A stretch of 64,000 bases of DNA, from positions 309,008,001 to 309,072,000 of the forward strand of contig OZ024743.1 of the NCBI GenBank assembly GCA_964016885.1. Direction: 5' to 3'. Below the pieces are notes generated by a model, which worked only from the letters and a program-made list of their open reading frames with translations, did not search any database and was not told the DNA's origin. The DNA comes from Eledone cirrhosa (lineage: Eukaryota). A program made the position numbers and the translations under genes. Of this stretch, positions 13,069-60,450 are shown in pieces (the first letter of the stretch is position 1; every line of letters starts with the position of its first letter).

Positions 13069-13165
<97 letters not shown>

Positions 13166-23783: not shown

Positions 23784-24054
23784 ATAAATATATATATATA
23801 TATATATGATATAAATATATATATATGATATATATATATATATATATAGTATTAAGGATACTATTTATGGTTATGTATGTAATAAAACCTTTAATGGTAA
23901 TATATTATTTATACAAACCTTAAATAGTGAAAGATAGTCATAAATTACTATCCTATTACCAGTAAGATAAATAGCTCAATGTAATAACATTAGTTGTTTT
24001 ACAGAGCAGTTATATAGAGATTACAATAATCAAAGTTCAGTTTAAGTCATTTAT

Positions 24055-24103
24055 TTGCTTACAATTGTTTCCTCCAAACCGAGGTTTGGATTCTTCGGCG
24101 CAA
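24055..24103 (-). ncRNA. pLTR hammerhead ribozyme (CCGAAGA core variant)
   Basis: Reverse strand: TTGCG-CCGAAGA-A-TCCAAAC(ctcg)GTTTGGA-G-GAAAC-AATT-GTA-AGCAA. Confidence 0.7.
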
Positions 24104-26071
24104 CTATTTATTGATCTATAACATACTTGACCTCCTTTTCAACCCAAGAAACATATAAGACATATGCGCATATTGATCAACAGTGGGGTGACATTCATCA
24201 AATGATATAGCATGGCAATTTACATATAAAGGTTACAGGATAAAAATAAAAATAAAAATAAAAATAAAAATAAAAATAAAAATAAAAATAAAAATAAAAA
24301 TAAAAATAAAAATGAAAATAAAGATAAACATGAAGTGTTGGCAGTCTATGAAGATAAAGCAAGAGGAAAGTTTAGAGTAGTCAGTGTATGAAACAATCTC
24401 ACGTGTAGCATGCACGCGTGTCTTATTTATACATGATTAGAGTGCGTCAGAATGATATTTGCGGGGTCAGGCAGTTGAAGCAGGCAATCGATCTTATTAT
24501 GTGGGCTGAATTATTAAGTCATTTATTCGCATACATCTGTATGATATACAGTCCCGGATGCAGGGAAACACCAAAATATCAGAAACTTTCAACATACTAT
24601 AAACCTTATTGTATCGTAGGCAAAGCCGTACCACTGTCTTCGCTCACAACTCACATAATCCATGAGACGCAATATATAGAACACGTGTCCATCGTATAAT
24701 TCACGATGGTTCGACATGTAATCAAGTTATATACCGTATCCAGTCGGTTCTTAATTACTAGATCATGCTGTTTAGATTCCGGAAGTGTCTGAATGACTAA
24801 GGGGAGTTAAAGCGTAAGGGGAGGTAACTAGCTAGTTATCTTGGTTAAATTATTATCCTAAACTGCATTAATGGTGATTCAAATACGTGCCTATCATATG
24901 AAGTTATAACTAATTTCTAGAGTATGTTTCCCATTTATAGGTTAGAGAGTTGTCCATTAAGAAGTACAAGGGTGTATATATTAGGATGATTACCATCCAT
25001 TAAGGGGTGTCATATCTGAACATTCTATAAGAGGAGTCAGACTCTCAAATCACTGTTCCATGCAAATGTAATATAACAGTAGGACCTGGTATGGTCCCAC
25101 TATTATATATGCCCCCCGGTAGGCTCCGGGTCATTGCATGTCTGAATCTCCGGTAAATATGAATACCTTCGGGGTGGTCCGGAGATCTAATTTCTCACAT
25201 AAGGGCACTAGTCTGGTCATCAAGCAATAGACAACCCCCATCTCATATATAAATCAATTAGGTATCGCATCTACAAGTTAGAGTGGAGTTTATTAATAGG
25301 TACTAAAGGAGTTCATATCATGATGATTACAATCTGGAGATTAAATCTCTCACACCAGGATACCTGACTGGCCACCAAGCAATACATAAACTCGCATCCC
25401 ACATATAGATCAGGTGTACCATCCACAAGTTAGAGTGGAGTCCAGTAACAAGTACTAAGAGAGTTCATATCAAGAAGACTACAATCCAACATGGGGTGCC
25501 ACACCTGGCCAATCCATAAGAAGAGTCAGACTACATAATTAATTACATGGGTCTCACTATCAGTAATGGTCTTATTATCGTACATGACTCCCGGCGAGAT
25601 TCAGGTTGTAGTATGACTGCATCCCCGGTAAATTCACCAGGGTGGTCCAGTGGCCGGTTCTCTCGTCAAAAGATGCCGGTCAGGTCACCAGGCAACACAG
25701 AGGCTCCTAACTCGTGCATCACCTGTGCATAGTTCATTGAACTGATCGTTTACAGTATATATTCACATAACAATACGATTATCTATCTAATCATCAATCT
25801 ATCTCTTGGTGGCAATCCATGCACAGGACTATGTTATCGCAACCAGTACCGTGTCCGCGGTTTATACTAATCTTATACTTGTGCAATGCAGTTTAAGTAG
25901 TCCACGGTCGAGATATCAGAATTAGAGGTACAAGGGGGTATTCCCAGGGTAGGTGGTACTAAAATGCTGTCAGTATTATCTTTAGAGTATATAAATGGGT
26001 GTGGATGTGAGGTGTAAGGTGAGCTACTGATGTTAATTGCTAGGGGTGGTGCCGGTTCCAGTCTGACATTA

Positions 26072-28559
26072 TTATATATAGGGTTTAAAGTTTTGGAACG
26101 AGTGTCGGAAGCGGTGTTGGCAAGTTGCGAACACTTCTGATTTTTTATTAAGGAGATTATGTTTAGAGAAGATGATAGTATGGGTCTCTAGTAGACAGAG
26201 GTTACAAAATTTATTAGGTGGTTTGTACGATGTTGCACTACCTACCGCTTCCCATTTAAGTGTATATATTTTATTTTTAGTTTTTAGATAGTGTATGTAG
26301 CTGGATAGTGAAGTGGAGTTGGCTAGACTGTGTTTTTTGAAAGAGTGGAGGTGCGAATTGTATCTAGTTTTGAAGCAGTTAGAAGTAGAGCCTATATAGG
26401 TTTCAGAAGAGTTGTTAGTTGTGACTGTACATGAGTATATGATATCCTTGGTTAAGCATTTTTTATCTAAAGGGCAGGTTCTACTTGATCTACAGTTACA
26501 ATTACTCTGGGTGCTAGTCTGCCGGTTACTATGCTGTGTAGAAGTTTGGATGTTAGCTATAGGGTTATGGTTATGTGGGTTGTGGTACGCAGCGTTAATG
26601 TTTACACTAGTGCTATTACTATTATTTCCATTAATATTATGGTTAGTTGCTATAATGTTACTTTGACTGTTATTTTGAATGTTATTTTGAAGGTTTATCG
26701 ACTGTTGTGATTTAGTTTGTTGGAAGTAAGAGTTAATTTTTCTTTTATTTGTACTAGCTATGTGGTATGCTAAGTTAGGCGTAGTAGAGTATGAGATCTT
26801 AATAGTGTTTTTGTTTAAAAGGCCGTGGTACCTGTGGCCGGATGGGAAGTGTTTATCTAGTAGTGAGAAGAAAGCCCTAGGTAGGTTGGTAGAGACGTTT
26901 AAATTGAAAGGAGGGTTGAAAAATGTATTATTTCTTCTTCTATTTCTGTTTTTTATGTCTGGTGATTTGTTTCCTTTAATGTTCCTATGGTAATTTCTGT
27001 GGTGCGGGTTACTTTTGTTGTTACTATCCCTATTAGTGTGTGTGCAGTTGCTATTCCTATTATTAAATTTTCCCATGGACATGTTGTGTGAAATGATGTT
27101 GTAGCTATGTGTTTTTGTAGGTAGGAACTCTATCCCTGTATTATGGCCTGATCTAGCTAATGCCTGATTATAATACTGCGAGTTATTGTTAAATGTGTTT
27201 ATGTCATAGGATAGATTAGAGATTCTATTAGATACTCTCTTAGAGATAGAGTTCAATATAGATTTAGGGTGGTTAGACTTGGTATCTACGTAGATGAGTT
27301 TTTCATTAGGTTTGTGGAAGGGTGCATATATCATTGAGTCTAGGTAGAGTGTGGCGTCTAGGAAGTTGACGTTTTTGGTGTTTTTGTCCATGGTAATACT
27401 AAGGTTAAAGTTTTTGAATGTTTTGTGCAATAGTTTTCTAGTCCTTTCTATATTGAATTTTTTATAGTCTATAAGTAGAAGTGCATCGTCGCGATACAAA
27501 CTACCGCTGAGGTACGGAAGTTCCCTGTGGATTTGGTTAAGTAAGTATAGGCCAACTAAATCAGTGACCTGCGCCGAGTCACTAGACCCCATAGTAATGT
27601 CGAAGTTGTTTTGCGTATCCTTGCGGGTCCATAATTGGTCTTCAAAGGTGATTATTGTTTTACGGGCCGCAAGTATGACATCAATCTGGGGTCTAGTCAG
27701 TTCACTATTGTCCATGGCCATTATAAGTGCCTTATTTAGTAGGATAGGGGAAATAGAGGTGTAGTAAGAGTTGATATCAAATTGAATACATTTTTTATCC
27801 TTGTTATCTATGGTATTTTTGAACCATTCAATCACCTCACCCGTATTTCCCCATTGTTTAAGGTAAATCTTGTGTTTAATCTGTGGGATGATTTTGTCTA
27901 GAATTTTTTTACTGATAATGCCAATGTCAGACCTGGAGGGGCAGATTAGTCTAATCGAGGGGTTGCTAATGAAGTCCACCTTATGGTCCTTCAGAGAGAA
28001 TCTAGGGGGGCGGTTTGGGGTGTAAGGTTGTGTATGTCTCTGGAGCCCTAGTTTGGATACTATATTATAGCCTTCCATATTAATATCTTCTAAGTTTTTC
28101 ATAGTGGTTTTCTTGTAGCTTTTATATAGTTCATTATATATAAACTTTCTATAGGTATTATAATCTAGGCTGTATATGTTATTAGTTTTGTCGGCATGTA
28201 CAAAAATTTTACTACTAGTTTTGAAGTCATTAATAGAGGTGCTAAGTTTGTTTAAGAAGGTGTTGTTTTTATTATGGTGTTTTTTTGTATTTAATGTTTT
28301 TAACTAGTTTAATTAGGTAGTTTTCGAAGTGGTTTAGTAGTGTGTTATGAGGGGGGCTTCTAAATGTTTTAAAGCCGAAGGAGTCAAATTTGTTGGTGTT
28401 ATTATCCTTGCCAGATTTGTTTCTATCATGATGGAATGTCCTCCATCTCACTCTATTGATAAAGGAGTTTACACTGTTGATCAACAACTTTTCATATGTA
28501 TTTTTGGTTGGTATAGGTATGTTCTTGGTTGACATAGGGAGTTGGTCTTTGATCAGCAT
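26072..28559 (-). pseudogene. PLE RT/GIY-YIG polyprotein (~829 codons) with a single frameshift near 28280
   Basis: KNIPIP, RWR, HADKT, RLICP, QFDINSYY, FDITMGSSD, YRDD, NFLD, FNPPF, CNC..CPL..C, IIY..YIG, CNLC..E..LLNKKSE..CQH. Confidence 0.92.
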
Positions 28560-28812
28560 GCTGGTAATTTATGGTATATCAGCTCAACAAAATGGAGCAG
28601 TTATTAGTATTAAAGATACTATTTATGGTTATGTATGTAATAAAACCTTTAATGGTAATATATTATTTATACAAACCTTAAATAGTGAAAGATAGTCATT
28701 AATTACTATCCTATTACCAGTAAGATAAATAGCTCAATGTAATAACATCAGTTGTTTTACAGAACAGTTATATAGAGATTACAATAATCAAAGTTCAGTT
28801 TAAGTCATTTAT

Positions 28813-28861
28813 TTGCTTACAATTGTTTCCTCCAAACCGAGGTTTGAATTCTTCGGAGCAA
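28813..28861 (-). ncRNA. pLTR hammerhead ribozyme (5' pLTR copy)
   Basis: Same fold as 24055-24103, with TTGCT/AGCAA stem I. Confidence 0.72.
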
Positions 28862-28925
28862 CTATTTACTGATCTATAACATACTTGACCTCCTTTTCAA
28901 CCCAAGAGACATATAAGACATATGC

Positions 28926-31900
28926 TCATCTACGTAGATACCAAGTCTAACCACCCTAAATCTATATTGAACTCTATCTCTAAGGGAGTATCTAATAGAA
29001 TCTCTAATCTATCCTATGACATAAACACATTTAACAATAACTCGCAGTATTATAATCAGGCATTAGCTAGATCAGGCCATAATACAGAGATAGAGTTCCT
29101 ACCTACAAAAACACATAGCTACAACATCATTTCACACAACATGTCCATGGGAAAATTTAATAATAGGAATAGCAACTGCACACACACTAATAGGGATAGT
29201 AACAACAAAAGTAACCCGCACCACAGAAATTACCATAGGAACATTAAAGGAAACAAATCACCAGACATAAAAAACAGAAATAGAAGAAGAAATAATACAT
29301 TTTTCAACCCTCCTTTCAATTTAAACGTCTCTACCAACCTACCTAGGGCTTTCTTCTCACTACTAGATAAACACTTCCCATCCGGCCACAGGTACCACGG
29401 CCTTTTAAACAAAAACACTATTAAGATCTCATACTCTACTACGCCTAACTTAGCATACCACATAGCTAGTACAAATAAAAGAAAAATTAACTCTTACTTC
29501 CAACAAACTAAATCACAACAGTCGATAAACCTTCAAAATAACATTCAAAATAACAGTCAAAGTAACATTATAGCAACTAACCATAATATTAATGGAAATA
29601 ATAGTAATAGCACTAGTGTAAACATTAACGCTGCGTACCACAACCCACATAACCATAACCCTATAGCTAACATCCAAACTTCTACACAGCATAGTAACCG
29701 GCAGACTAGCACCCAGAGTAATTGTAACTGTAGATCAAGTAGAACCTGCCCTTTAGATAAAAAATGCTTAACCAAGGATATCATATACTCATGTACAGTC
29801 ACAACTAACAACTCTTCTGAAACCTATATAGGCTCTACTTCTAACTGCTTCAAAACTAGATACAATTCGCACCTCCACTCTTTCAAAAAACACAGTCTAG
29901 CCAACTCCACTTCACTATCCAGCTACATACACTATCTAAAAACTAAAAATAAAATATATACACTTAAATGGGAAGCGGTAGGTAGTGCAACATCGTACAA
30001 ACCACCTAATAAATTTTGTAACCTCTGTCTACTAGAGACCCATACTATCATCTTCTCTAAACATAATCTCCTTAATAAAAAATCAGAAGTGTTCGCAACT
30101 TGCCAACACCGCTTCCGACACTCGTTCCAAAACTTTAAACCCTATATATAATAATGTCAGACTGGAACCGGCACCACCCCTAGCAATTAACATCAGTAGC
30201 TCACCTTACACCTCACATCCACACCCATTTATATACTCTAAAGATAATACTGACAGCATTTTAGTACCACCTACCCTGGGAATACCCCCTTGTACCTCTA
30301 ATTCTGATATCTCGACCGTGGACTACTTAAACTGCATTGCACAAGTATAAGATTAGTATAAACCGCGGACACGGTACTGGTTGCGATAACATAGTCCTGT
30401 GCATGGATTGCCACCAAGAGATAGATTGATGATTAGATAGATAATCGTATTGTTATGTGAATATATACTGTAAACGATCAGTTCAATGAACTATGCACAG
30501 GTGATGCACGAGTTAGGAGCCTCTGTGTTGCCTGGTGACCTGACCGGCATCTTTTGACGAGAGAACCGGCCACTGGACCACCCTGGTGAATTTATCGGGG
30601 ATGCAGTCATACTACAACCTGAATCTCGCCGGGAGTCATGTACAATATTAAGACCATTACTGATAGTGAGACCCATGTAATTAATTATGTAGTCTGACTC
30701 TTCTTATGGATTGGCCAGGTGTGGCACCCCATGTTGGATTGTAGTCTTCATGATATGAACTCCCTTAGTACTTGTTACTGGACTCCACTCTAACTTGTGG
30801 ATGGGACACCTGATCTATATGTGGGATGCGAGTTTATGTATTGCTTGGTGGCCAGACAAGTGTCCTGGTATGAGAGATTTAATCTCCAGATTGTAATCAT
30901 CATGATATGAACTCCTTTAGTACCTATTAATAGACTCCACTCTAACTTGTAGATGTGATACCTAATTGATTTATATATGAGATGGGGGTTGTCTATTGCT
31001 TGATGACCAGACTAGTGCCTTTATATGAGAAATTAGATCTCCGGACCACCCCGAAGGTATTCAGATTTACCGGAGATTCAGACATGCAATGACCCGGAGC
31101 CTACCGGGGGGCATATATAATAGTGGGACCATACCAGGTCCTACTGTTATATTACATTTGCATGGAACAGTGATTTGAGAGTCTGACTCCTCTTATAGAA
31201 TGTTCAGATATGACACCCCTTAATGGATGGTAATCATCCTAATATATACACCCTTGTACTTCTTAATGGACAACTCTCTAACCTATAAATGGGAAACATA
31301 CTCTAGAAATTAGTTATAACTTCATATGATAGGCACGTATTTGAATCACCATTAATGCAGTTTAGGATAATAATTTAACCAAGATAACTAGCTAGTTACC
31401 TCCCCTTACGCTTTAACTCCCCTTAGTCATTCAGACACTTCCGGAATCTAAACAGCATGATCTAGTAATTAAGAACCGACTGGATACGGTATATAACTTG
31501 ATTATATGCCGAACCATCGTGAATTATACGATGGACACGTATTCTATATATTGCGTCTCATGGATTATGTGAGTGGTGAGCGAAGACAGTGGTACCGCTT
31601 TGCCTACGATACAATAAGGTTTATAGTATGTTGAAAGTTTCTGATATTTTGGTGTTTCCCTGCATCCGGGACTGTATATCATACACATGTATGCGAATAA
31701 ATGACTTAATAATTCAGCCCACATAATAAGATCGATTGCCTGCTTCAACTGCCTGACCCTGCAAATATCATTCTGACGCACTCTAATCATGTATAAATAA
31801 GACACGCGTGCATGCTACACGTGAGATTGTTTCATACACTGACTACTCTAAACTTTCCTCTTGCTTTATCTTCATAGACTACCAACGCTTCATGTTTATC

Positions 31901-32154
31901 TTTATTTTCATTTTTGTTTTTATTTTTATTTTTATCCTGTAACCTTTATATGTAAATTGCCATGCTATATCATTTGATGAATGTCACCCCACTGTTGATC
32001 AATATGCGCATATGTCTTATATGTCTCTTGGGTTGAAAAGGAGGTCAAGTATGTTATAGATCAGTAAATAGTTGCTCCGAAGAATCCAAACCTCGGTTTG
32101 GAGGAAACAATTGTAAGCAAATAAATGACTTAAACTGAACTTTGATTATTGTAA

Positions 32155-32158
<4 letters not shown>
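28926..32158 (+). mobile_element. Inverted 5'-truncated copy of PLE 1 (mirror of ~24017-27298)
   Basis: ORF 28922-30151 is nearly identical to the C-terminal part of 26072-28102; UTR mirrored; ends in (TA)n. Confidence 0.95.
32072..32120 (+). ncRNA. Hammerhead ribozyme in the inverted arm of PLE 1
   Basis: TTGCT-CCGAAGA-A-TCCAAAC(ctcg)GTTTGGA-G-GAAAC-AATT-GTA-AGCAA. Confidence 0.75.
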
Positions 32159-34509: not shown

Positions 34510-34775
34510 TTAGCAGAGGTACCCGGCGTTGCTCGGGTATTAAATAGCAGTTATGTATACCATTTATGTCAATATTTCAGTGCTGCTTCGAAAACTATAC
34601 TTTTACAAAATCATCGGTTTTTTCCCAAAGGCGGTTCCTTCAACCAGGGGTCCCCTACTGAATATGTGCCAATTCACATTGATCTTTAGAACAAACGTAG
34701 CCCATGTGTCAAGTTTTGTGAAAATCGGTTGTGAACTCCAGAAGTTATGACGTTTTGTTGCATTGCACTGCATAT
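34510..34775 (-). mobile_element. Helitron 3' segment
   Basis: Reverse strand ends ACCCGAGCAACGCCGGGTACCTCTG-CTAA, the same hairpin as at 33340. The right boundary is uncertain. Confidence 0.65.
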
Positions 34776-35147
34776 ATAGCTATTTCAGAGCGCCAATTCT
34801 AATTTTCAATTTCTGCTTGACCGGCAACCGCTCTGTATAATCACTTCCTGATTATTACTAAAAATTCTATAAGAATCAAACATTCATGAATTTCAGCAAA
34901 CAGGTGGAGTACTTGGCTTTGATAAGTACCAATCAGTACGAAACATAGCCCGTCAGCTTTATCTGCCCTGTTTGCTGAAAATTTAAAGTAAGTGAGTCTG
35001 TCACTACTCTAAAACAATAGTATAAGGTCTTCAAAATGCTTTTAATTAAGCATACAGTGTATTGCAAAATACACTATATATACATTCAAATATATATAGC
35101 TATTTCAGAGCGCCAATTCTAATTTTATATATATATATATATATATA

Positions 35148-35221
35148 CAGTAGCATGCACATATATATATATATATACATATATACATACATATGCATAC
35201 AGGTACACATACATATATGCA
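35148..35221 (-). repeat. Inverted fragment of the 466-bp unit at the array's 5' edge
   Basis: Reverse complement of ~35376-35450. Confidence 0.85.
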
Positions 35222-38200
35222 GATAGCTAACAAGCTTGAAACTAGTACATCGTTCCTGTGTCAGTGTTGAACAAAAAGGTGACGTGGTTGCCTTAACACC
35301 GTATGGCATAAATTCAGGCTGTTCAGTTTGTTTACAAACGAACAAAGCGACGTTAGCGCCGCTAAACTGATACGTGCATATATGTATGTGTACCTGTATG
35401 CATATGTATGTATATATGTATATATATATATATATGTGCATGCTACTGTACGTCTGTATACATATATGTATGTACGTATACATGCATACTTACATTTAAG
35501 TAAGTGCCATACTAAGAGTGAGAAATGAAATTTCGTTTTCATTTTGTTTCAATTTATCGTTTTCGGTATGCCTGACCGATTTAACTCACTCAATATGCAA
35601 ATTAGGCTGCTCAGCCGTTAATTTTCATAAGGAAAGTATATACTTTCGAACGTTCAACTATCTGGCAGATGGGTAAACGGTGCTGATGATAGCTAACAAG
35701 CTTGAAACTAGTACATCGTTCCTGTGTCAGTGTTGAACAAAAAGGTGACGTGGTTGCCTTAACACCGTATGGCATAAATTCAGGCTGTTCAGTTTGTTTA
35801 CAAACGAACAAAGCGACGTTAGCGCCGCTAAACTGATACGTGCATATATGTATGTGTACCTGTATGCATATGTATGTATATATGTATATATATATATATA
35901 TGTGCATGCTACTGTACGTCTGTATACATATATGTATGTACGTATACATGCATACTTACATTTAAGTAAGTGCCATACTAAGAGTGAGAAATGAAATTTC
36001 GTTTTCATTTTGTTTCAATTTATCGTTTTCGGTATGCCTGACCGATTTAACTCACTCAATATGCAAATTAGGCTGCTCAGCCGTTAATTTTCATAAGGAA
36101 AGTATATACTTTCGAACGTTCAACTATCTGGCAGATGGGTAAACGGTGCTGATGATAGCTAACAAGCTTGAAACTAGTACATCGTTCCTGTGTCAGTGTT
36201 GAACAAAAAGGTGACGTGGTTGCCTTAACACCGTATGGCATAAATTCAGGCTGTTCAGTTTGTTTACAAACGAACAAAGCGACGTTAGCGCCGCTAAACT
36301 GATACGTGCATATATGTATGTGTACCTGTATGCATATGTATGTATATATGTATATATATATATATATGTGCATGCTACTGTACGTCTGTATACATATATG
36401 TATGTACGTATACATGCATACTTACATTTAAGTAAGTGCCATACTAAGAGTGAGAAATGAAATTTCGTTTTCATTTTGTTTCAATTTATCGTTTTCGGTA
36501 TGCCTGACCGATTTAACTCACTCAATATGCAAATTAGGCTGCTCAGCCGTTAATTTTCATAAGGAAAGTATATACTTTCGAACGTTCAACTATCTGGCAG
36601 ATGGGTAAACGGTGCTGATGATAGCTAACAAGCTTGAAACTAGTACATCGTTCCTGTGTCAGTGTTGAACAAAAAGGTGACGTGGTTGCCTTAACACCGT
36701 ATGGCATAAATTCAGGCTGTTCAGTTTGTTTACAAACGAACAAAGCGACGTTAGCGCCGCTAAACTGATACGTGCATATATGTATGTGTACCTGTATGCA
36801 TATGTATGTATATATGTATATATATATATATATGTGCATGCTACTGTACGTCTGTATACATATATGTATGTACGTATACATGCATACTTACATTTAAGTA
36901 AGTGCCATACTAAGAGTGAGAAATGAAATTTCGTTTTCATTTTGTTTCAATTTATCGTTTTCGGTATGCCTGACCGATTTAACTCACTCAATATGCAAAT
37001 TAGGCTGCTCAGCCGTTAATTTTCATAAGGAAAGTATATACTTTCGAACGTTCAACTATCTGGCAGATGGGTAAACGGTGCTGATGATAGCTAACAAGCT
37101 TGAAACTAGTACATCGTTCCTGTGTCAGTGTTGAACAAAAAGGTGACGTGGTTGCCTTAACACCGTATGGCATAAATTCAGGCTGTTCAGTTTGTTTACA
37201 AACGAACAAAGCGACGTTAGCGCCGCTAAACTGATACGTGCATATATGTATGTGTACCTGTATGCATATGTATGTATATATGTATATATATATATATATG
37301 TGCATGCTACTGTACGTCTGTATACATATATGTATGTACGTATACATGCATACTTACATTTAAGTAAGTGCCATACTAAGAGTGAGAAATGAAATTTCGT
37401 TTTCATTTTGTTTCAATTTATCGTTTTCGGTATGCCTGACCGATTTAACTCACTCAATATGCAAATTAGGCTGCTCAGCCGTTAATTTTCATAAGGAAAG
37501 TATATACTTTCGAACGTTCAACTATCTGGCAGATGGGTAAACGGTGCTGATGATAGCTAACAAGCTTGAAACTAGTACATCGTTCCTGTGTCAGTGTTGA
37601 ACAAAAAGGTGACGTGGTTGCCTTAACACCGTATGGCATAAATTCAGGCTGTTCAGTTTGTTTACAAACGAACAAAGCGACGTTAGCGCCGCTAAACTGA
37701 TACGTGCATATATGTATGTGTACCTGTATGCATATGTATGTATATATGTATATATATATATATATGTGCATGCTACTGTACGTCTGTATACATATATGTA
37801 TGTACGTATACATGCATACTTACATTTAAGTAAGTGCCATACTAAGAGTGAGAAATGAAATTTCGTTTTCATTTTGTTTCAATTTATCGTTTTCGGTATG
37901 CCTGACCGATTTAACTCACTCAATATGCAAATTAGGCTGCTCAGCCGTTAATTTTCATAAGGAAAGTATATACTTTCGAACGTTCAACTATCTGGCAGAT
38001 GGGTAAACGGTGCTGATGATAGCTAACAAGCTTGAAACTAGTACATCGTTCCTGTGTCAGTGTTGAACAAAAAGGTGACGTGGTTGCCTTAACACCGTAT
38101 GGCATAAATTCAGGCTGTTCAGTTTGTTTACAAACGAACAAAGCGACGTTAGCGCCGCTAAACTGATACGTGCATATATGTATGTGTACCTGTATGCATA

Positions 38201-38347
38201 TGTATGTATATATGTATATATATATATATATGTGCATGCTACTGTACGTCTGTATACATATATGTATGTACGTATACATGCATACTTACATTTAAGTAAG
38301 TGCCATACTAAGAGTGAGAAATGAAATTTCGTTTTCATTTTGTTTCA

Positions 38348-38352
<5 letters not shown>
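35222..38352 (+). repeat. 466-bp tandem array (~6.7 units), hammerhead-containing, retrozyme-like
   Basis: Identical ORF-track translations recur at exact 466-bp spacing (35611, 36077, 36543, 37009, 37475, 37941); bounded by (TA)n. Confidence 0.97.
35676..35720 (+). ncRNA. Type I hammerhead ribozyme of the array unit (also 36142-36186, 36608-36652, 37074-37118, 37540-37584, 38006-38050)
   Basis: AACGGTG-CTGATGA-T-AGCT(aaca)AGCT-T-GAAAC-TA-GTA^CATCGTT; predicted cleavage after 35713; palindromic stem III ACTAGT. Confidence 0.85.
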
Positions 38353-38382
<30 letters not shown>

Positions 38383-38573
38383 GTATAGGATTACCCAAGA
38401 TGTAGTAATGGTTATTTACTACACTGGATATGGTTGACGTACGGTGAGAGGTTACTCTTCGAGTTATCGAAAAATTGTTGAAGAAACTTAGTTCTGATCC
38501 TTCTGTATTCCGGAGTGTATATAAAGTATGAATAATAACAGGTAGACATCATAAAAAGGTAATTTATTCCGTG

Positions 38574-38685
38574 TGCTTACAAATGTTTCCACGGTGGTAC
38601 TACAGCCTAGTTATGCTATGTGCAAATTTGCAAGTATTTGCAGAACTCAAATATCCAGTGCTGTGACCACTGTATCCTCAGAGCA
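38574..38685 (-). ncRNA. Hammerhead ribozyme with long stem II insertion
   Basis: Reverse strand: TGCT-CTGAGGA-[~85-nt stem II]-GAAAC-ATTT-GTA-AGCA. Confidence 0.7.
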
Positions 38686-39159
38686 GAATGGTAAAATGTA
38701 CAATGTAAATACCCTTAAGTGGGTTATTGGGGAAGATAGAGTAGAAAAGGAAGAGAGAAAAGTAGGGGAGAGGGAGAGAGAGAGAAAGGTATGCAGGGGT
38801 TGGAGAAGTAGGAGAGAGTGGTTTGTAGATATCTTAATCAAAATGTTATGGTAGGGGTTTTATTATACTGGTTACTTTTGGAGAGATGCGTTGATAGTTA
38901 AGGTCGGAATTATTTATTGCCCCAGAGGGCAGGTTCATAGATGTGGAGAGGGAGGTAGGCCAAAGGCGAGAGAGAGTGTAATGGATGTAGAGAGGGGACA
39001 GACGAAGTTTATGTGGTGAGTGAACTTTGGATTTGTAGTAGTAATCTGTGAATTGCACTGAGTTACCATTTATAGCGATAAGCAGTGTATTGTCTTGTAG
39101 TGTGGGGGAAGAGAAGGTGGTTAGCTAGAAAGCGATGTTATAGTTACGGCTTCGAATGT

Positions 39160-41476
39160 TAAGTTATTTTATAGTGAGAGAATTTAGCTTTTAGTTTGTG
39201 GTTGCAGTATAATGATCGTTCAATTCTATCGTTAAGTAGTTTGTTTTTTGATTTTAATATGTAAAAGAGTTCGAGGTTGCATAACCTGCAGTACTTCAAT
39301 CCACTCCGATATGCCGCTTGCGTTGGAAAGTATATCCTATTTTAAGGTGAACTGTTGGTTGCGTTCACGGAGTTACCGGGTCTTGTTGGCGAGCGTGGTC
39401 ACAAAACGGTGATTAGGATGTTTGATTGAGAATCGATGACGGTACCAGCGAGATTTAAACCAGGTGGTGGTAGATCCGATATAATACCATTTCTGGTCGT
39501 TCGATTCAACCGTGCATTGGTAAACAATGTTGGACTTTAGGCATTCATTCTTCAATGGACATCTTTCAGGTAGATGGCAGTTACATTCTTTGTTGTGGGT
39601 AGCGGGTATACCATGGATAGGTTGTGATAGCGGTACACGTGGATTGTGTAATATCCGTCTCCCATTTAGTGGTTGTGAGGCAGATATTACGTTCTGTCCA
39701 TCTGTTACTAAAATGTTTTGTTTTGTAGAGTTGTTTAATTGCCTTAAGTTAAGTTTTTTTATGTATGCTTCAAGGTTTGGTGCCGTGGTGTATGATAGTC
39801 TAATAGTTTTAGAGTTCAGAATTTTGCTGTATTTATGGGAACTAGGGAAATGTTTGTTGATTAACTTAAAGAATGAAAGAGATAGTTTTGTACTGATCGA
39901 GGCATTAAAAATAGGATTGTACCAGATATACTTTCTACAACGTGATTTATTTGGTGGAGATTTTCTATTATTAGTATGTCTGGTAGTACTGTGTGTGTGC
40001 GCTTGTATTTTAGTCCCCCGGTTACGTATTCCTTGATTTCGTGTAGGGCTATGTGTGTTATGGAGATTCCTATCAATGTATTCTATTGTATCCCGGTGGT
40101 CGCCCTTCCTTAATGCATTATTGTAGTATTCAGCGTGTTCACTAAAAATATCAGAGTTAGACGATAGGCGAGAGATTCTAAGAGAAATACTCCGGGGAAC
40201 TGATTTGATCATGGAGAGTGGGTGGATTGAGTTAAAGTTAATATACGTAAGGTTCTCATTCATCTTGTGGAAGGGTCGTATCTGTCCGGTATTTAAATTA
40301 AGAGTTACGTCTAGAAAGTTTACTACTTTAAGATTGTATTCGTATGTTATTTTTAGACCCAGTTCACTAAAAGATTTTCTAATATTTTTCCGTAGCCTTT
40401 CAAGATTTTGGTTATTCAAGTTATTAACTAATAAGAGCCCGTCATGTCTATATATCCCCCCCTGTAGATTACTAAATCTACTATGTAATATGTGGGCCAT
40501 GTAAATTCCCACGATATCCGTGACCTCCGCTGAGTCGTTGGAACCCACGGTAATATCGAAATTTGTGGGTCTGTCCTTACATTCCCAGTAGCAGTTATCA
40601 AACTTAATAATGGTTTTTCTAGCCTCGAGAATAATATTAATTTCGTCCTCCGTTAGGTCGGAATTGACCTTAGCAAACGATAGGGCCTTACGTAAAGTGC
40701 TAGGTGAGATGGAAGAGTAGTATTCGTCTATGTCAAATTGTATAAACTTAGATTTATTCTTATTCTTAACGTTATTAAACCAGCGAATTGCTTCGCTATT
40801 GTTGCCCCATAATTTAATTTCAATTTTCTTTTTCACTTGAGTTATTACTCTGTCAAGTATATGTTTGCTAATTTTTCCAATGTCTGATTTAGAAGGGCAT
40901 ATAAGTCTAATCTTAGGGTTAGAGTCAAAATTTACCTTATGGTCCTTCAGGTTGAAGGTGGGGGTAGCGGGTATAATCGGCTCGGTTCTATCGTCTATCT
41001 TGAGATTCTTCACCACTTTATATGCCTCGTTGTTAATATTTGCTAGCGTAGTTTCATTTGTTTTTCTATATTTTTTGTGTAGTTCGTTGCGTATGAAGTT
41101 ATTGTACGTATCGATATCCATGGTATACACGTTAGATGTCTTGTCAGCTTTCACAACAATTTTGCAATCTTCGGAGTAGTGCTTTCATGTTGCTCTGCAG
41201 CTCATTATTTCTATGCTTGTTGAACTTAATGTTCATGGTCGTTTTCATTAAATCTTGTTCGAAAGCATCGAGATGAGGGTTTGTGGGTGGGTTTTTACAT
41301 GATTTAAAACCATATGATTCAGACGAGTGACTGGCGCGTCCTTTATCGAAATGGAAAGCTTTCCATCGTACACGCCGAATGAAGTCGTTATTGCGTTGAA
41401 TCATACTAAGAATATATTCCCTTTTGTTAGGTATAGGTATGTTTTTAAGTGACATACCTATATGATGCCTTTCCAT
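39160..41476 (-). pseudogene. PLE 2 RT/GIY-YIG polyprotein, disrupted
   Basis: KNIPIP, RWKA, KADKT, QFDIDEYY, FDITVGSND, YRHD (mutated YRDD), NFLDVTL, CNC..CPL, IVY..YIG; frameshift near 41170 and stops near 39373 and 39338. Confidence 0.9.
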
Positions 41477-41482
41477 ATTAAT

Positions 41483-43520
41483 ATTTCGACATTACCATGG
41501 GTTCCAACGACTCAGCGGAGGTCACGGATATCGTGGGAATTTACATAGCCCACACATTACATAGTAAATTTAGTAATCTACAGGGGGGATATACAGAGAT
41601 GACGGGCTCTTATTAGTTAATAACTTGAATAACCAAAATCTTGAAAGGCTACGGAAAAATATTAGAAAATCTTTTAGTGAACTGGGTCTAAAAAGAACAT
41701 ACGAATACAATCTTAAAGTAGTAAACTTTCTAGACGTAACTCTTAATTTAAATATCGGACAGATACGACCCTTCCACAAGATGAATGAGAACCTTACGTA
41801 TATTAACTTTAACTCAAATCACCCACTCTCCATGATCAAATCAGTTCCCCGGAGTATTTCTCTTAGAATCTCTCGCCTATCGTCTAACTCTGATATTTTT
41901 AGTGAACACGCTGAATACTACAATAATGCATTAAGGAAGGGCGACCACCGGGATACAATAGAATACATTGATAGGAATCTCCATAACACACATAGCCCTA
42001 CACGAAATCAAGGAATACGTAACCGGGGGACTAAAATACAAGCGCACACACACAGTACTACCAGACATACTAATAATAGAAAATCTCCACCAAATAAATC
42101 ACGTTGTAGAAAGTATATCTGGTACAATCTTATTTTTAATGCCTCGATCAGTACAAAACTATCTCTTTCATTTTTTAAGTTAATCAACAAACATTTCCCT
42201 AGTTCCCATAAATACAGCAAAATTCTGAACTCTAAAACTATTAGACTATCATACACCACGGCACCAAACCTTGAAGCATACATAAAAAAACTTAACTTAA
42301 GGCAATTAAACAACTCTACAAAACAAAACATTTTAGTAACAGATGGACAGAACGTAATATCTGCCTCCCAACCACTAAATGGGAGACGGGTATTACACAA
42401 TCCACGTGTACCGCTATCACAACCTATCCATGGTATACCCGCTACCCACAACAAAGAATGTAACTGCCATCTACCTGAAAGATGTCCATTGAAGAATGAA
42501 TGCCTAAAGTCCAACATTGTTTACCAATGCACGGTTGAATCGAACGACCAGAAATGGTATTATATCGGATCTACCACCACCTGGTTTAAATCTCGCTGGT
42601 ACCGTCATCGATTCTCAATCAAACATCCTAATCACCGTTTTGTGACCACGCTCGCCAACAAGACCTGGTAACTCCGTGAACGCAACCAACAGTTCACCTT
42701 AAAATAGGATATACTTTCCAACGCAAGCGGCATATCGGAGTGGATTGAAGTACTGCAGGTTATGCAACCTCGAACTCTTTTACATATTAAAATCAAAAAA
42801 CAAACTACTTAACGATAGAATTGAACGATCATTATACTGCAACCACAAACTAAAAGCTAAATTCTCTCACTATAAAATAACTTAACATTCGAAGCCGTAA
42901 CTATAACATCGCTTTCTAGCTAACCACCTTCTCTTCCCCCACACTACAAGACAATACACTGCTTATCGCTATAAATGGTAACTCAGTGCAATTCACAGAT
43001 TACTACTACAAATCCAAAGTTCACTCACCACATAAACTTCGTCTGTCCCCTCTCTACATCCATTACACTCTCTCTCGCCTTTGGCCTACCTCCCTCTCCA
43101 CATCTATGAACCTGCCCTCTGGGGCAATAAATAATTCCGACCTTAACTATCAACGCATCTCTCCAAAAGTAACCAGTATAATAAAACCCCTACCATAACA
43201 TTTTGATTAAGATATCTACAAACCACTCTCTCCTACTTCTCCAACCCCTGCATACCTTTCTCTCTCTCTCCCTCTCCCCTACTTTTCTCTCTTCCTTTTC
43301 TACTCTATCTTCCCCAATAACCCACTTAAGGGTATTTACATTGTACATTTTACCATTCTGCTCTGAGGATACAGTGGTCACAGCATTGGATATTTGAGTT
43401 CTGCAAATACTTGCAAATTTGCACATAGCATAACTAGGCTGTAGTACCACCGTGGAAACATTTGTAAGCACACGGAATAAATTACCTTTCTATGATGTCT
43501 ACCTGTTATTATTCATTCTT

Positions 43521-43522
<2 letters not shown>
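41483..43522 (+). mobile_element. Inverted 5'-truncated copy of PLE 2 (mirror of ~38521-40563)
   Basis: ORF 41625-42671 matches the C-terminal part of 39373-41154; ends in (TA)n. Confidence 0.95.
43359..43470 (+). ncRNA. Hammerhead ribozyme with long stem II (inverted arm of PLE 2)
   Basis: TGCT-CTGAGGA-TACAGTGGTCACAGC...GCTGTAGTACCACCGTG-GAAAC-ATTT-GTA-AGCA. Confidence 0.72.
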
Positions 43523-43759
<237 letters not shown>

Positions 43760-45703: not shown

Positions 45704-46343
<640 letters not shown>

Positions 46344-46351
46344 AAATTCAG

Positions 46352-46432
46352 GACCCCGACGGCTGAGCTCCGACCGTTTAGACATCGTTCAGATCTAGCT
46401 GTCGAAACGGCCGGAGCTCAGCCGCTTGGGTC
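46352..46432. repeat. GC-rich ~80-bp imperfect hairpin next to (TA)n
   Basis: GACCCCGACGGCTGAGCTCCGACCGTTTAGACA / TGTCGAAACGGCCGGAGCTCAGCCGCTTGGGTC. Confidence 0.7.
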
Positions 46433-47130
46433 GTGAATCTTTTCATATTACCCACTCTACTACCCCAAGTATCGATTACTCTGGTGCGTTATAGATAGCC
46501 CACCTGGTATTTTACCACACCTTCTTTGTGATTATATATATATATATATATAAATACATAATCGGAGAAAGCTAATAGCGATACTCCGGCCAAATTCCAA
46601 CTCACTTAACAAACATTAAGAAATATCTGAGTATATTCCTAATTAAACGTTTGGGGTGCTAACTGTATTGTATTGTGTGGAAAATTGGCTGTATCATTTC
46701 ATATGAGATATATCAAATATATCACTTCCCAGACGACTCGTTTCATTATAAGATTTCTACAAGTTGGCTGAAATTATACCAAATTATGTAGAAGCTTGTA
46801 TAATTCAACAGATACTTATTCAAGTGGGCTCTTATAATTCTTCAGTGGGTGCCCAATAATATTAATATTGATAACCAAATCAACATCAATATTTAGCGAT
46901 AATCACCATCAGTGCTTGAGGGAGCTGCTAGGTTGTTAGTCCAGCAGTTCTAAAGAAAATCTCACACTGTCTCGAAAATAGGAGGAAGGAGACTACCGCC
47001 AAAAACAATACATGCGCAGGTCGTTGAATTCTGATAAGAATTCATATATATATATGTATATATATATATTACATTATACTGTAATATATTATATTATATT
47101 ATATTATATTATATTATATTATATTATATC

Positions 47131-48902: not shown

Positions 48903-50745
48903 CGTCTACAACGTGATGGTGCCACGCTAAAAACACCGGTGGTGATGTAACCATACATTCACCAATCCTTGATATGATTGTTTAAATGTCGAACCTAAAC
49001 AGTTCGAATAACGGTGAAAAGGAAACTGGAACGTCAGGTGAAAGACTCTCACCCAGAAAGTTCTCCCTTGCCCAGCAGCAGGGACCTGGCTGTCATCCAA
49101 ATACTGCTGGTGTTGGAGGAAGAAGAAGGAAAGGGACAAGAACCAACTGGACGAAAGAATTGAATAGAACTGTCGTGAAATGTTACCTGAAGAGTAACCC
49201 ATGGAAAAAGGCTATAGGAAACGGATGCATAACATCTGGAACGAGATTGGTCTATTTAAATTAGGTGAACAAAAATTGGCCGGAGAGGCTCGGGTAATAA
49301 GAACTAATGGATGGATAAGCGAGTTGTAACTGGAGGAACTGAACAGAGAGATTAAGTTGGAAATCGAGAGTGGAGTATATCAGGCTAATGAGCCAGTGGG
49401 AAATGAAGGTGAAGAAGTTGAGAGACCTGAGGAAGCATCCGAAGCAGACAATGATCTGAATGCTGAAATAAATAACATCTGGAACAAAGATACGGCCATT
49501 GAGGAAATGAATGCTGACGGGCTAGGGCAAGATTTGGTTGATATTCTGAACTTAGTGGTAGATGAAATGAACAATGATAGTGGAAAACCTATGAACCTAA
49601 GATTTGTAGACAGGAAAAAGTTAAAAGAAACAACAGCTAAGGTATACAAGGTCATCCCATATCTTGAGGCGAGGAATCTTCACCAATGCAATAATATCCT
49701 CAAAGCAACCGCAAATGTGTTAAGGAAATTACTTGGTATAAAAACAAGAGGAAACAACAAACAAGAAAGATCAGACAGAACCTTGGTGGAAGAAACGACT
49801 GAATGGTCAAATCAAGGAAATGAGAAAAGACATTGTAAAGCTTGAGTCTTTACTGAATGGGACATTACAAAACATAGACACTAAAGATAGAGTGAAAATA
49901 AAATACAAAACTAGTGGGTAAGAGCTAAATGTTATCATAGAGGAACTGAAGCAACGCATTGTAGCAAAAAGTGCAAAGATTAGGCGGTATGAGAACAGAG
50001 TTAGTCAGTATAGACAGGGCCGCATGTTTGACAACAACCAGAAGATGTTTGAACAGCTTGAAGGGAAAGAAGGAGGCAACGACGTGATCCCTGAGGCCGA
50101 ACAAACTAAGACATTCTGGAGAGGAATATGGGAGCAGGATGTTGAACATAATAGTAAGGCAGTGTGGATTGAGACAGTTCAAAGAAGATTAGTGAACAAG
50201 CACACCTGATTTGAGTATCACAGTTGGAATTCTTAAAGGGCAAGCCAAAAAACTAACCCACTGGAAATCACCAGGCCCAGATGGTGTGCAAGGGTATTGG
50301 ATTAAAAATATAACATACCTCCTCTCACAACTGACAACCATGTTCAATGACTGCTTGATGTCGGGTGAAGTACCAGAGTGGTTGACAAAAGATACCAGAG
50401 TTCTGGTAATGAAAGACCGAATCAAGGGTAATGATGTTACCAACTATAGGCCTATCACATGTCTGTCGGTAATGTGGAAACTGTTAACAAGCATTGTGTC
50501 TGAGGAAATCTACCATCACCTCCACATAAACAACTTGTTACCGGACGAACAGAAAGGATGCCGAAAGAAGTCCCGTGGTACAAAAGACCAATTACTTATT
50601 GATAAGATGGTAATGAGGAATTGCAAGAGGAGGCACATTGGTCTTGCCATGGGATGGATAGATTACAAAAAGGCATTCGACATGGTACCTCATTCTTGGA
50701 TCATCAAAAGCCTAGAGATCTTCAAGGTGGCAGATAACATCAGAC
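48903..50745 (+). mobile_element. R4/Dong-clade family 2, 5' half (degenerate, 3' end lost)
   Basis: ATG 48986, RTNWTKELN, WKSPGPDG, NYRPITCL, WIDYKKAFDMVPH; breaks at 50745. Confidence 0.88.
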
Positions 50746-53513
50746 CCTATCGGAAGCTTTCGACTGATCTAAATTGACCAAGGACCCACCCATGCCAGGT
50801 TCCCTAGCTACACTCTCTACGATGTATCGCATGAGGTGGAGGTTGTCGTGGATGGATCTGTCGGGAATGGCGCATGTCTGCGCCTCTCCCACCAGACCAC
50901 CAACGACAAGCGCCAACCTCTTTGCTAGCACCTTGGCCAAAATCTTGAACTCTGTGTTTAGCAGAGTAATGGGCCGGAAATTATCTATGTTATCCCCCTT
51001 GATCGGATCCTTACTCAGCAGCGCCACCGCTCCTCGGCTCACAGAGCTGGGAATTCTCCAGTTCTGTTGCCAGTTGCAGTAGACGTCCGCCAAGAGGCCT
51101 CCGAACAAGTCTGGCATCTCTACGTAAAGTTCATAGGGCGGACCATCTAAACCAGGCGATTTACCCCTTGTGCAGCCAGTCATTGCCTCCCGTACTTCAG
51201 CGGCTGTTATCGGCTTTTCGCAACACTCCGCTTCAGTGGCCGAGAGCCGCGGCAGTCCGTCGAGGTAGACACTAAAGTCCATCCCTCGATCCGGCCCGCC
51301 GCTGCCCCCGAACAGCTGTGCGAAGTGTCGCTGAAAAGCTTCACACATTTGCCCGGGATCGAGTAGCATGCGCCCGTCGTGGTCCACCAAAGATCGGATC
51401 GTGGCTTTGTTGCCACGACGCGCCTCCGCCACTCGGGCCCATTGAACGGCTTTCGTCCCCAGGTGTCTGAGATCACACACCATAGCTCTGACAACGCAGC
51501 CTTCGTGCTTTGCATTGAAGAATTGGTCAAGGGCCAATTTCGCCGCAAGTACGTCGGTCGCGATGCCTTTGCTAAGCGCCTCGTCTAATTTTCTAATTAG
51601 TTCTCCCTCTGCTCTATGGTGGTAGTATTGAAGGTGTTGTTGTTGTTGGCGGTGGGGTTGTCGCCGGTGGTGATGGTGGTGCTAGTGTGGGTTGTGATGG
51701 TGTTGGTGGTGTTGCTGCTGTGAGTCTCTTTGCAGTAGCCTTTACCCTTTTTTCATTTCTTTCCTCCCTTTTCGAAGGCGACGATGCGCTGCTTCTGCGT
51801 TTGTGATTCTTACGACCTTTTGACATCCCTCTCCCACCTCACACTCCATGTCTGATTATGTGAGGTCGGGGAGGGGTACCAGCTCCACTCTTTCACTTGT
51901 TGTTGTTGGTGATGTTTGCACTGGAGTCTCTGTTGCAGCTGCATTTGGTATTGCTGTTGTTGTTGTTAATACTTCCACTGCTGCTGCTGTTTTTGATTTC
52001 CGTGGCGTGGGTATGGGTGTCACGGACCTATCGTTCCTGGTTTCCGCTTGTCCTGTTGCTGGTAGCCGTGGCGCCGGTTTCGGAAGGAGGGGGTTTTCTC
52101 CTTTCTCAGGGTCTTCTCGTGGTAGAAGGTCCTGAGGTGAGTCTTCGATCCACAGCGAAAGCATTTCGGGCGTTTGCCCTCAACACTTATGGGCAGTTGA
52201 GTGCCGTTATCGAATGAGTGCCGTTATCGATGCACTCCTGGTTGGTTTGGATTAACATCTCAATGGAGGTGCCGACCCAATCTTCTCTTACTTTTTTCTG
52301 TACTTGCAGTACAGTTGTTTTGTCCTCGATTCCGACGAGGACAGACGCGGCCAGCCAAGAAGGGGCCATCCCGGGTGGGACGTGGGTCAGTTTGACCCTC
52401 ACAATTTTTTGCCCGCAGTAGGAGGGCACCAACACCATTTCCTCGCTCCTTAGGGTCACTACGGATTGAGCCTTTGCCTCCTGGGGTGTGGCAAAACGCA
52501 CGTCTACGGTGGCATATTCCTTGCCTCGGTTGATGTAAGTTTTCCGCTGCCACACAGACCCTAAGGCTTATTGTATTTGAGCCTCTGTGGCTCTTTCAAC
52601 CCTACGGGATTTTGTGCTTACTGTACGGTACGTGACCGTACAGTGCTGTTGGGTTTCGAAAAACTTTTCGGCTGCCTTGCAGATTGCTCGGTGTCCAGTC
52701 TTTGTCACCATCTTCATCGCTTCCTCTAATTCTTCATTTGTTATGAGGATGGTTTCCAGGTTCTTTGCGATACCTGCAAACGGGATTGGTTTTTCTTTGC
52801 TGCTGTTGTTGTTGTTGTCGTCAGAGCTGCTGTTACTTTTGTTGTTGCTGCAGGTACTACGACTACTGCCGCCATCGCTGTTGCTGTGGTTGTTGTTGTT
52901 GTTGCTGCCGCTGCTGTTGTTGTTGCTGCTAATGCTGTTGTTGTTTATGCTGCTACTGATGCTGTTGCGGCTGCTACTGTTGTTTTCCTTGTCACTGTTG
53001 CTGCTGCTGCTGTTATTACGGCTGCTAGTTCTATTATTCCTGACGTCAGACGAATGAAATGGGTTTTCGTATTTCCCGCACACCTTTTTCGTCGTTGTCG
53101 TCGTCGTCGTGGAGAAATCTTGCACGCTTTGCACGTGATTTTTCTTTTCTGGCGTCGCTTGATAAAGAGAAGGGAGGGAGGGAGACACATTTAGAAAAGG
53201 GAGGGAGAGAGACAATCTTCTCTCTGCTGTAGTGACGATTGAGGATGTAGAAGACGGAATGAGTGGGAGTGACCTATGAAAATTCTTTTTCGTAGCCTTG
53301 TATTTTTTTGTTTAAAATAAATATTGGGCACAAAGCCCCAATAAGCGGTTATTTAACCCCGAAGGGCCAAATAACGGGCAGAAAGACCCCTCTCACGAGG
53401 AGGAGAGTGTTTTTGTCTACAATTTGGTTAAAGTTTTAAACAATTTACAATTGTTATAGCGGTCAAAGTTTACAATACCTTACAGAGCCGAGCCTCCGTC
53501 AACCATAGCATTC
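50743..53513 (-). mobile_element. Tx1/L1-clade copy 3 (5' UTR, ORF1, APE deleted at ~51617, partial RT, 3' end lost)
   Basis: ORF1 fragments 52568-53215 and 52187-52555; ORF2 fragment 50740-51617 (KSPGLDG, FRPITLLN, DQSKASDRV); 5' end preceded by (TTA)n. Confidence 0.9.
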
Positions 53514-53532
53514 AATAATAATAATAATGACC

Positions 53533-55863: not shown

Positions 55864-55865
55864 AA

Positions 55866-55930
<65 letters not shown>

Positions 55931-55941
55931 TAGGGAAGAAG

Positions 55942-56923
55942 ACGCACGTGGTGGATAGAGTGTTATGGAACCGCTCCCGTAAGTTTTTGATTTTTAACAT
56001 ATTTAAAACAATTGTGATATAACAATTCGTAGTACAAATTGGTCATAAAGCACCAGGCCTCTCTCAGGAAATGAAGACCCATAATATTCTGTTATATTGC
56101 TCAAATATTCAATTTTGTATAATAAATTTTATATTTAAAAAAGAAAATGGTTATAAATGGAAGAAAATACCCTCTGTCTACACTATAGAACAGCCAAATA
56201 ACAGCCAAATAACAGCAAATAACAGCAATTTCACCAACACCACAAACTAGATACACCACCTATCCCATCACCCCTCCGTGTACACTAAATACAACAGCCA
56301 GATAACGGCAATTTAACCACCACCACCACCAATCCCAGCATAATAATAATTACTATTATTGTATCTCAAGTTTTCTCAAAATGTTTAATTCAAATATTAA
56401 GAAAAATATGTCAACACATATATTAAACATACGCGACAAACCGCATAGATAGACAGATCAAACAAACGCACATTACTACAGTCTATTCAACAGAACTCAG
56501 TAACGACAACGCCATCACTATAGTCACCGCCACCACCACTCCATAATTGCTACCACTATCCCATCACTGCCACCACCACTCCTTCATTTCTACCACCACT
56601 ATTCCCCCAATACCTTCTGTTAATTTAAGAAAGGGGAAGGTGGCGGTATCACTAGACAAGGGAGAGGCTAGCAAAAGATATAAATAGATAGACTTAGTGA
56701 CCCGGCCACCGGCCAAACGTCAACAACTATGGCACTGCTGGCTCCTCCCTTCCTCACCAACAATAGAAAAAGCCCCAGCACCACCATCGACATAGCCAAC
56801 AACAATAACAGGCAATTTCAGCAAAAAGTATATTATATTATTAATAATTTCATTCTTAAGCCACGCAATGCTTACATTAAGGAACCACTCATGATAATAA
56901 TTTAAAAACAACAAAAAAGAAAA
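55942..56923 (+). repeat. Leader repeat upstream of Dong family 1 copy 2
   Basis: Homologous to 6925-8004 and 47959-48545. Confidence 0.7.
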
Positions 56924-59900: not shown

Positions 59901-60450
59901 CAAAGCAGGTAAAAGTAACTGCAAAGAAAGAACTGCTACAGAAACTGGCTAAGAAATGGCAAGAAAAGCCTCTGTATGGAAAATACCCAGAAAGAGCTAA
60001 CAATCCTGATGTTGACAAAACTTTAACCCATCAGTGGTTGGCATCCTCTGGACTGAAATCGGAGACTGAAGGACTGATTATATCAGCACAAGATCAGTGT
60101 CTGCCAACAAAAAATTACCAGCCAACATAATAATAAATGGATGCAACCCATTATGCCGTGTATGTAAAAAACAACCAGAGACCATTGATAATATAATTTT
60201 AATGTGCAGTCCTATAGCTCCAACCGAATACCTAAACAGGCACGACAGAGCTGTACAATACATACATTGGATACTGTGTAAGCATTTTGACCTGCCCCAT
60301 CAAAAGAATTGGTGGGAGCATCAACCACCGCCCATACTTGAAAAAGATCACATCTCAATCTTGTGGAACTTTAGTATCCAAACAAACCGAAAGATAGATG
60401 CAAATAGAACTGATATAATACTGAAGGACTTTAAAAAGAGGGTATGCCTG
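56924..60450 (+). mobile_element. R4/Dong-clade family 1 copy 2 (frameshifted, 3'-truncated)
   Basis: Collinear, highly similar fragments of the 8165-11815 ORF from MSNDKISY to FKKRVCL. Confidence 0.93.

Follow-up and report, generated by a model that had tools for sequence, protein, structure and literature searches.

The window, a stretch of 64,000 nucleotides of Eledone cirrhosa DNA (contig OZ024743.1), contains a tandem array of a non-coding 466-bp repeat, the retrozyme unit, lying beside two broken Penelope-like elements (PLE 1 and PLE 2). Coordinates are those of the window unless a sampled locus (L) is named. The array and its borders comprise the following parts:

35127..35147, unstranded: (TA)n target, left
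35148..35221, minus strand: short inverted arm, corresponding to unit bases 154-227
35222..38353, plus strand: long arm of the array, 6.7 identical 466-bp retrozyme units, its 3' end at site B of the family (described below)
38351..38379, unstranded: (TA)n tract common to the 3' ends of the array and of PLE 2

With a period of 466 over 6.7 copies, the array shows zero differences among its six full units. Its first base (35222) is G8 of the CUGAUGA motif, so that the 5' cut falls within the hammerhead core, as the initial annotation had proposed. The same annotation had described (TA)n on both sides of the array, a 74-bp inverted piece of the unit capping its 5' end, and a tail-to-tail arrangement with PLE 2 across one (TA)n tract, and all of these were borne out. 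The cap matches unit bases 154-227 exactly in reverse complement (76 bp if the 2-nt TA overlap into the left tract is counted), and its joint to the array is blunt. The 3' end of the array, CAATT-TAT, overlaps the right tract by 2-3 nt, across which the long arm of PLE 2 ends at 38380. In 380 kb of control DNA taken at even spacing, a (TA)5+ tract started within 10 nt of just 1.4% of non-tract positions, so the (TA)n borders of the array are more than a chance association. The short arm has its 3' end ~44 nt short of family site A, at a position found once in the genome, which makes this locus a less clean example than most.

The unit has a GC content of 33-36% and no LTRs, and the array is without an ORF of 150 aa. 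Three features of the first units are referred to below:

35493..35557, plus strand: 'tail' of ~62 nt between sites A and B, in the first unit, which continues past both sites
35595..35642, plus strand: octamer ATGCAAAT, conserved box and TATA-like box, 5' of the hammerhead
35676..35720, plus strand: type I hammerhead motif, first complete copy, then every 466 bp to 38013

A type I hammerhead motif is present in every tandem unit, and six motifs in the array are complete. Each consists of a 7-bp stem I, CUGAUGA, a U-U followed by a 4-bp stem II, and GAAAC-UA-GUA, with a stem III of two pairs; the cut is predicted to fall after 35713 in the first full copy. An Rfam search gave nothing at gathering score: the HH9 match to the unit was weak (18.5 bits, under the cut-off), and matches to miRNA families were dismissed as low-complexity. 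A sister retrozyme family with 63% identity, itself two-armed with its own two ends (L071 3570-4680), keeps the hammerhead core, and its stems I and II covary with those of the unit through compensatory changes. The octamer and the two further boxes are also kept in this sister family, at similar spacing, and are a candidate promoter. This reading presumably has its parallels in snRNA-type promoters and in newt satellite 2; a literature search found no paper for it. The unit was found in six sequencing runs of unspecified kind under four organism codes, and no RNA run was listed as containing it. Two of the six gave it as a single closed contig of 470-486 nt, a form that a tandem array would give as well and that was therefore not taken as evidence. 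RNA-editing scars were looked for and rejected, since A-to-G was not over-represented among the changes private to one locus (12 A>G, 16 T>C). A shared start structure was likewise not taken as evidence: in most of five predicted folds, made without a control, site B lies between two hairpins.

The two neighbouring elements are each built of two arms placed head to head and ending in (TA)n (PLE 1, 23848-32157; PLE 2, 38380-43522), so the (TA)n target and 5' inversion that had been claimed for both were found:

23848..28929, minus strand: PLE 1 long arm, Hydra-type, with a 325-bp pseudo-LTR at 28605-28929, ending at its own site B
28925..32157, plus strand: PLE 1 inverted arm, ending at its own site A
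38380..41483, minus strand: PLE 2 long arm, Hydra-type, ending at its own site B, frameshifted and with YRHD at the RT motif
41483..43522, plus strand: PLE 2 short arm, ending at its own site A, 99.0% identical to the long arm

The predicted proteins of both place the RT first and GIY-YIG last, with YIG at residue 636/743 and 568/603, past the RT motifs. Both have DKT and a CxCX5C linker and target (TA)n; RWK is found in PLE 2 and RWR in PLE 1, and by eye the RT motifs agree with the published Hydra alignment. A Pfam search missed both RTs and returned one weak GIY-YIG match. The available part of Craig et al. 2021 (PMC8557442) gives the Hydra clade a C-terminal endonuclease, DKT and CxCX5C, and the Naiad clade an N-terminal endonuclease and DKA. 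Judged by their protein motifs, PLE 1 and PLE 2 are Hydra-clade elements, and the earlier Naiad label was given up, as both have a C-terminal GIY-YIG and DKT rather than an N-terminal endonuclease and DKA. They share with Hydra, as far as it is described in that text, the domain order, DKT, CxCX5C, RT motifs and (TA)n target, but differ in size and ribozyme: Hydra elements are there <3 kb with a canonical hammerhead near the 3' end, whereas PLE 1 (~4.8 kb) and PLE 2 (~3.1 kb) both exceed 3 kb, and a search of the two for a canonical hammerhead found none. The tails measured here are also longer, 62-170 nt (retrozyme ~62 nt, PLE 2 ~140 nt, PLE 1 ~165-170 nt) against 30-40 nt in the Hydra account. 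The long arm of PLE 1 has a frameshift near its start, and the element has a long 3' region holding internal 158-nt repeats. The two arms in the window (24734-24768 and 31455-31489) are the sole matches to the PLE 1 pattern in the genome, and PLE 1 may therefore be a rare family; the PLE 2 family has 258 pattern matches. Just 3' of site B, a GCTCC, 5-7 nt, GTTGAGC-like motif recurs in three divergent Hydra families (window 28607 on the minus strand, L106 4469 and L171 5137) and is a candidate RT start signal.

The ends of the retrozyme were then considered across the family. A 40-nt core pattern had 10,122 exact matches in the 3.0-Gb genome, genome-wide counts being made by exact pattern matching. 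All sampled retrozyme loci are on one contig (C1): a first set comprised the first 40 core-matching regions, and a second set, used as a forward test, comprised 40 further loci picked solely by their B end. Retrozyme 3' ends lie at two fixed internal sites, ~247 nt (A) and ~310 nt (B) downstream of the ribozyme cut. In the 40 regions of the first set the automatic caller recorded 63 TA-joined ends, 29 at A and 34 at B. By eye, ~30/44 insertions of this set are two-armed, a few ends are without TA, and ~7/30 of the two-armed insertions have one off-site end, often in the internal TA run of the unit.

Where both ends of a divergent pair were TA-joined, the first set gave one A and one B in 19 pairs out of 19 (p about 2e-6 if the arms chose independently). 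The initial automatic end caller, which overlooked many ends, had given 11/11 A+B; raw pairs from the second caller were 19 A+B, 2 A+A and 1 B+B, and 16 non-TA 'other' end calls, mostly off-array matches or read-through variants, were removed before the 19/19 was obtained. In the second set 30/40 insertions were two-armed, and of the 30 partner arms 27 stopped at A or no more than 4 nt from it, 1 was unclear, 2 were off-site and 0 were at B; the remainder were 9 single arms and 1 arm joined to a fold-back copy of its own flank. Three A+B pairs came from nine further regions, with a fourth when two views of its locus were combined, and there were zero contrary pairs. Exact ends genome-wide numbered 2,601 for A joined to TA and 1,786 for B joined to TA, and the exact pattern for the ribozyme cut site joined to TA occurred 0 times. 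Substitutions amount to ~1 per 330 nt both within an arm and between opposite arms, compared with 12.4 between loci, and arms reach ~14 units (L182).

Comparison of these junctions with the family of PLE 2, along the lines of a check that the initial annotation had suggested for Naiad families, revealed the same two-ended, paired-arm pattern: in 40 regions, 17 of the 18 pairs were A+B and 1 was B+B, the two ends being ~140 nt apart. Among the counter-cases named by the annotation were arrays enclosed in Helitron or DNA-transposon termini, and here the flanks differ among array loci, with no shared element termini enclosing the arrays.

Frangieh et al. 2024 (PMC11167929), in the portion of the paper available, show that the 'tail' of a PLE reaches from one internal RT start site to a second, and describe it as unique to PLEs. 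The fixed A and B ends match this PLE-only feature, so the retrozyme carries a PLE-specific mark beyond a preference for (TA)n, and mobilisation by a PLE enzyme is likely. We consider it very probable that the retrozyme is mobilised by PLE machinery. Of the initial proposal, a non-coding ribozyme RNA parasitising the Naiad RT/GIY-YIG, the mobilisation in trans by a PLE is retained on the evidence of the fixed ends, the pairing, (TA)n and the inverted arms, and the Naiad attribution is not. The array itself is, with good probability, one young insertion of a non-LTR retrozyme, likely copied by a PLE into (TA)n, and Hydra is a more likely source of the enzyme than any other clade.

That the Hydra clade drives the retrozyme is, taken by itself, only a little better than an even proposition. 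Hydra-like ORFs lay within ~3 kb of 12/40 arrays and of 2/38 control windows (p = 0.007). (TA)n is, however, threefold more frequent in array flanks (11% against 3.6% in control DNA), and a shared target therefore explains this enrichment. The claim that helper and parasite lie side by side accordingly failed on several grounds: the neighbours are frameshifted, PLE 2 has YRHD, there is no homology to the unit, and the enrichment is matched by that of (TA)n. PLE 1 and PLE 2 are not the helpers of this array. More direct links are two joins without TA, at L047 and L044, to a third Hydra family, whose ORFs are intact and which has a hammerhead of its own and 14,563 end matches. At L047 one arm runs from site A of the third Hydra family through its RT region into 1.8 retrozyme units, and the other is a retrozyme arm ending at B; at L044 one arm runs from retrozyme site A into the endonuclease region of the third Hydra family, and the other carries that family's end at its site B. 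Both loci thus obey the A+B rule across the two elements. Such joins were seen in 2/89 regions and in 0 of the 40 B-anchored loci; a later deletion across a TA tract could produce either. Among the sequencing-run contigs listed, none bridged the L047 joint. The U-U at the base of stem II is shared with many Hydra ribozymes, being found by our count in 14/25 of the Hydra hammerheads tabulated in the available text of Craig et al. (PMC8557442), and a partly available account of the axolotl retrozyme hammerhead likewise has U-U at stem II.

The repeat might instead be mobilised by a PLE of a non-Hydra clade, Naiad or another with a C-terminal endonuclease, the Hydra neighbours and joins then reflecting a shared target; this is possible, and we give it limited credence. 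(TA)n and inverted copies cannot by themselves name the clade, as Craig et al. (PMC8557442), in the part available, list both for Naiad as well as Hydra, and a non-Hydra PLE family also ends at a fixed site in (TA)n. That source further gives Naiad tails and inverted 5' copies, and lists Naiads in Octopus. In the present genome the top GIY-YIG matches are non-Hydra, and some PLEs outside Hydra have a fixed end in (TA)n. The unit lacks the motif that PLE 1, PLE 2 and the third Hydra family carry just 3' of site B, and it has no homology to the four Hydra families compared, PLE 1 and PLE 2 included, even in the pseudo-LTR. Against a non-Hydra driver, the direct joins to coding sequence that were seen go to Hydra alone, and inspection of the sampled loci, done without a Naiad query, turned up no Naiad-type element.

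In the DNA itself, the ends are internal and fixed and overlap TA by 2-3 nt, paired arms use one end of each kind, the units of an insertion are nearly identical, and no end lies at the cut site. For the preferred reading, copying by a PLE enzyme, the following route is envisaged. A borrowed PLE RT/GIY-YIG protein would cleave a (TA)n tract on both strands; the resulting DNA ends would each prime reverse transcription at A or B of the RNA through a 2-3 nt TA overlap, and the far ends of the two cDNAs would then be joined, head to head. Arms of several units would likely come from repeated rounds on a self-cut, ligated RNA circle; an uncut multimeric transcript would fit them too. The array and PLE 2 probably entered one tract in succession. 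A more specific proposal, which we put forward tentatively and regard as doubtful, is that a dimeric Hydra RT/GIY-YIG accepts the two start sites of a small ribozyme-made RNA circle in place of its own and strictly reserves one of them for each cut strand. It would go round the circle repeatedly from either side, and a single integration event could combine its own RNA, the circle and target DNA that has folded back. In the in vitro work of Frangieh et al. (PMC11167929), as far as it is available, start-site use did not differ between the strands and ribozyme cleavage was unnecessary.

It is also conceivable, though rather unlikely, that the template was a long, linear, multimeric transcript of an existing array, in which case neither an RNA circle nor self-cleavage would be involved. 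This would suit the lack of ends at the cut site and the structure of the motif, in which stem II opens with U-U and stem III has two pairs; in addition, unprocessed RNA served a PLE as template in vitro (Frangieh et al., PMC11167929) and cleavage was observed for 1/9 Xenopus dimers (Li et al., bioRxiv 10.64898/2026.07.22.740005), both according to partial texts. It accounts less well for units that are near-identical within an insertion and divergent between loci, for arms of ~14 units, and for a core that is kept, with stems I and II covarying, in the sister family, and circles have been demonstrated for coral, mussel and axolotl retrozymes in the literature as partly available.

One further feature encloses the array together with PLE 2:

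43546..43662, minus strand: inverted copy of the left flank of the array (35010-35127), lying between (TA)n tracts

Similar inverted flanks were seen at other loci, and TA-centred palindromes were in excess at element loci (11 in 574 kb, against 1 in 380 kb of controls), which together suggest fold-back copying of target DNA; 43546-43662 is thus likely such a copy and not a transposon terminus. Fold-back flank copies centred on (TA)n were noted at L034, L058, L081 and L206 as well as in the window, where they act as, or adjoin, the second arm of PLE-type insertions. At L081 an apparent retrozyme piece at the 5' end of a PLE 2-family element was at first a candidate chimera, and was dismissed as a fold-back flank copy. 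The 118-bp inverted repeats were rejected as transposon ends because the left copy is seamless within a longer repeat, of which 34772-35060 is matched by 6633-6922. That the array is a satellite grown by DNA slippage, or cargo of a Helitron or DNA transposon with these repeats as termini, is very improbable and already largely refuted: the repeats do enclose the array and PLE 2, (TA)n is common even in control DNA, and the left flank begins with what we take to be a Helitron-like end, but slippage cannot yield fixed A+B ends, at other loci the flanks are unrelated and lack these repeats, the left copy continues unbroken into its longer repeat, and comparable fold-back copies stand at other PLE and retrozyme ends.

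Several other elements were recorded in the window and the sampled loci. A second hammerhead repeat family, with a 310-bp unit and U-U at stem II, is two-armed in L034 5970-8460, and a partial copy of it at window 12802-13079 adjoins a 22-bp fold-back of its flank. The repeat to the left of the array (34772-35126; also 6586-6922) has a 320-bp period and is ~77% similar to the 3' part of the 310-bp family; it is possibly an old, decayed retrozyme family in or beside a Helitron-like element from ~34505. An intact ORF of 1216 aa for a non-LTR RT, followed by a (TAA)n tail, occupies 8165-11815, with decayed relatives at 49330-60130. Fragments at 60860-63644 resemble a Helitron Rep/helicase region; a Pfam search of one ORF from this interval gave no match. 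A small palindromic repeat ending in (TA)n (L058 3520-3590, L031 3230-3415, window 46340-46450) is present at ~30 loci and is once joined directly to a retrozyme 5' end.

The unit closely resembles the metazoan non-LTR retrozymes of Cervera and de la Pena 2020 (PMC7229834; review PMC7761336), which in the parts of these papers available have the same tandem, non-coding, low-GC units with one type I hammerhead each and thousands of copies; at 466 nt it stands at the long end of their range. Expression and cleavage are reported there for metazoan retrozymes, whereas the present family is described from its DNA. PLEs were proposed in PMC7229834 as the likely movers, with a circular template, and the two papers argue from shared ribozymes, tandem form and co-occurrence, whereas the evidence here is an integration footprint; two-armed insertions, fixed ends and a (TA)n target are not described in the text available from them. 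Li, Clavereau and Pollet 2026 (bioRxiv 10.64898/2026.07.22.740005) regard animal retrozymes as non-autonomous partners of PLEs. As far as that preprint is available, it relies on vertebrate co-occurrence and pLTR homology and suggests local tandem growth, in contrast to the footprint used here, and its Xenopus case has homology to a PLE, unlike the present unit with respect to the four PLE families compared. The Poseidon element PAc (Frangieh et al. 2024, PMC11167929) also has two internal RT starts giving a tail, cutting and extension of both strands, and an AT-rich target. Its starts are, in the available account, without strand bias or homology to the cut DNA, whereas here one A and one B are used with a 2-3 nt TA overlap, on a template that, unlike that of the PAc system, is non-coding. 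The one-of-each rule is likewise absent from the available Hydra account of PMC8557442. A search of the literature outside subscription journals found no paper with such junction evidence for retrozymes.

PLE mobilisation of retrozymes is thus already published as a hypothesis, for which the present data are good genomic evidence. PLEs have been proposed, not shown, as the movers of animal retrozymes since 2020, and a PLE-only footprint on a protein-free repeat supports the link. The use of one start site of each kind bears on the way in which the two strands are resolved during PLE integration. With start sites mapped on a 466-nt template and an intact family of candidate enzymes at hand, both matters can be put to the test in the in vitro PLE assay that already exists.
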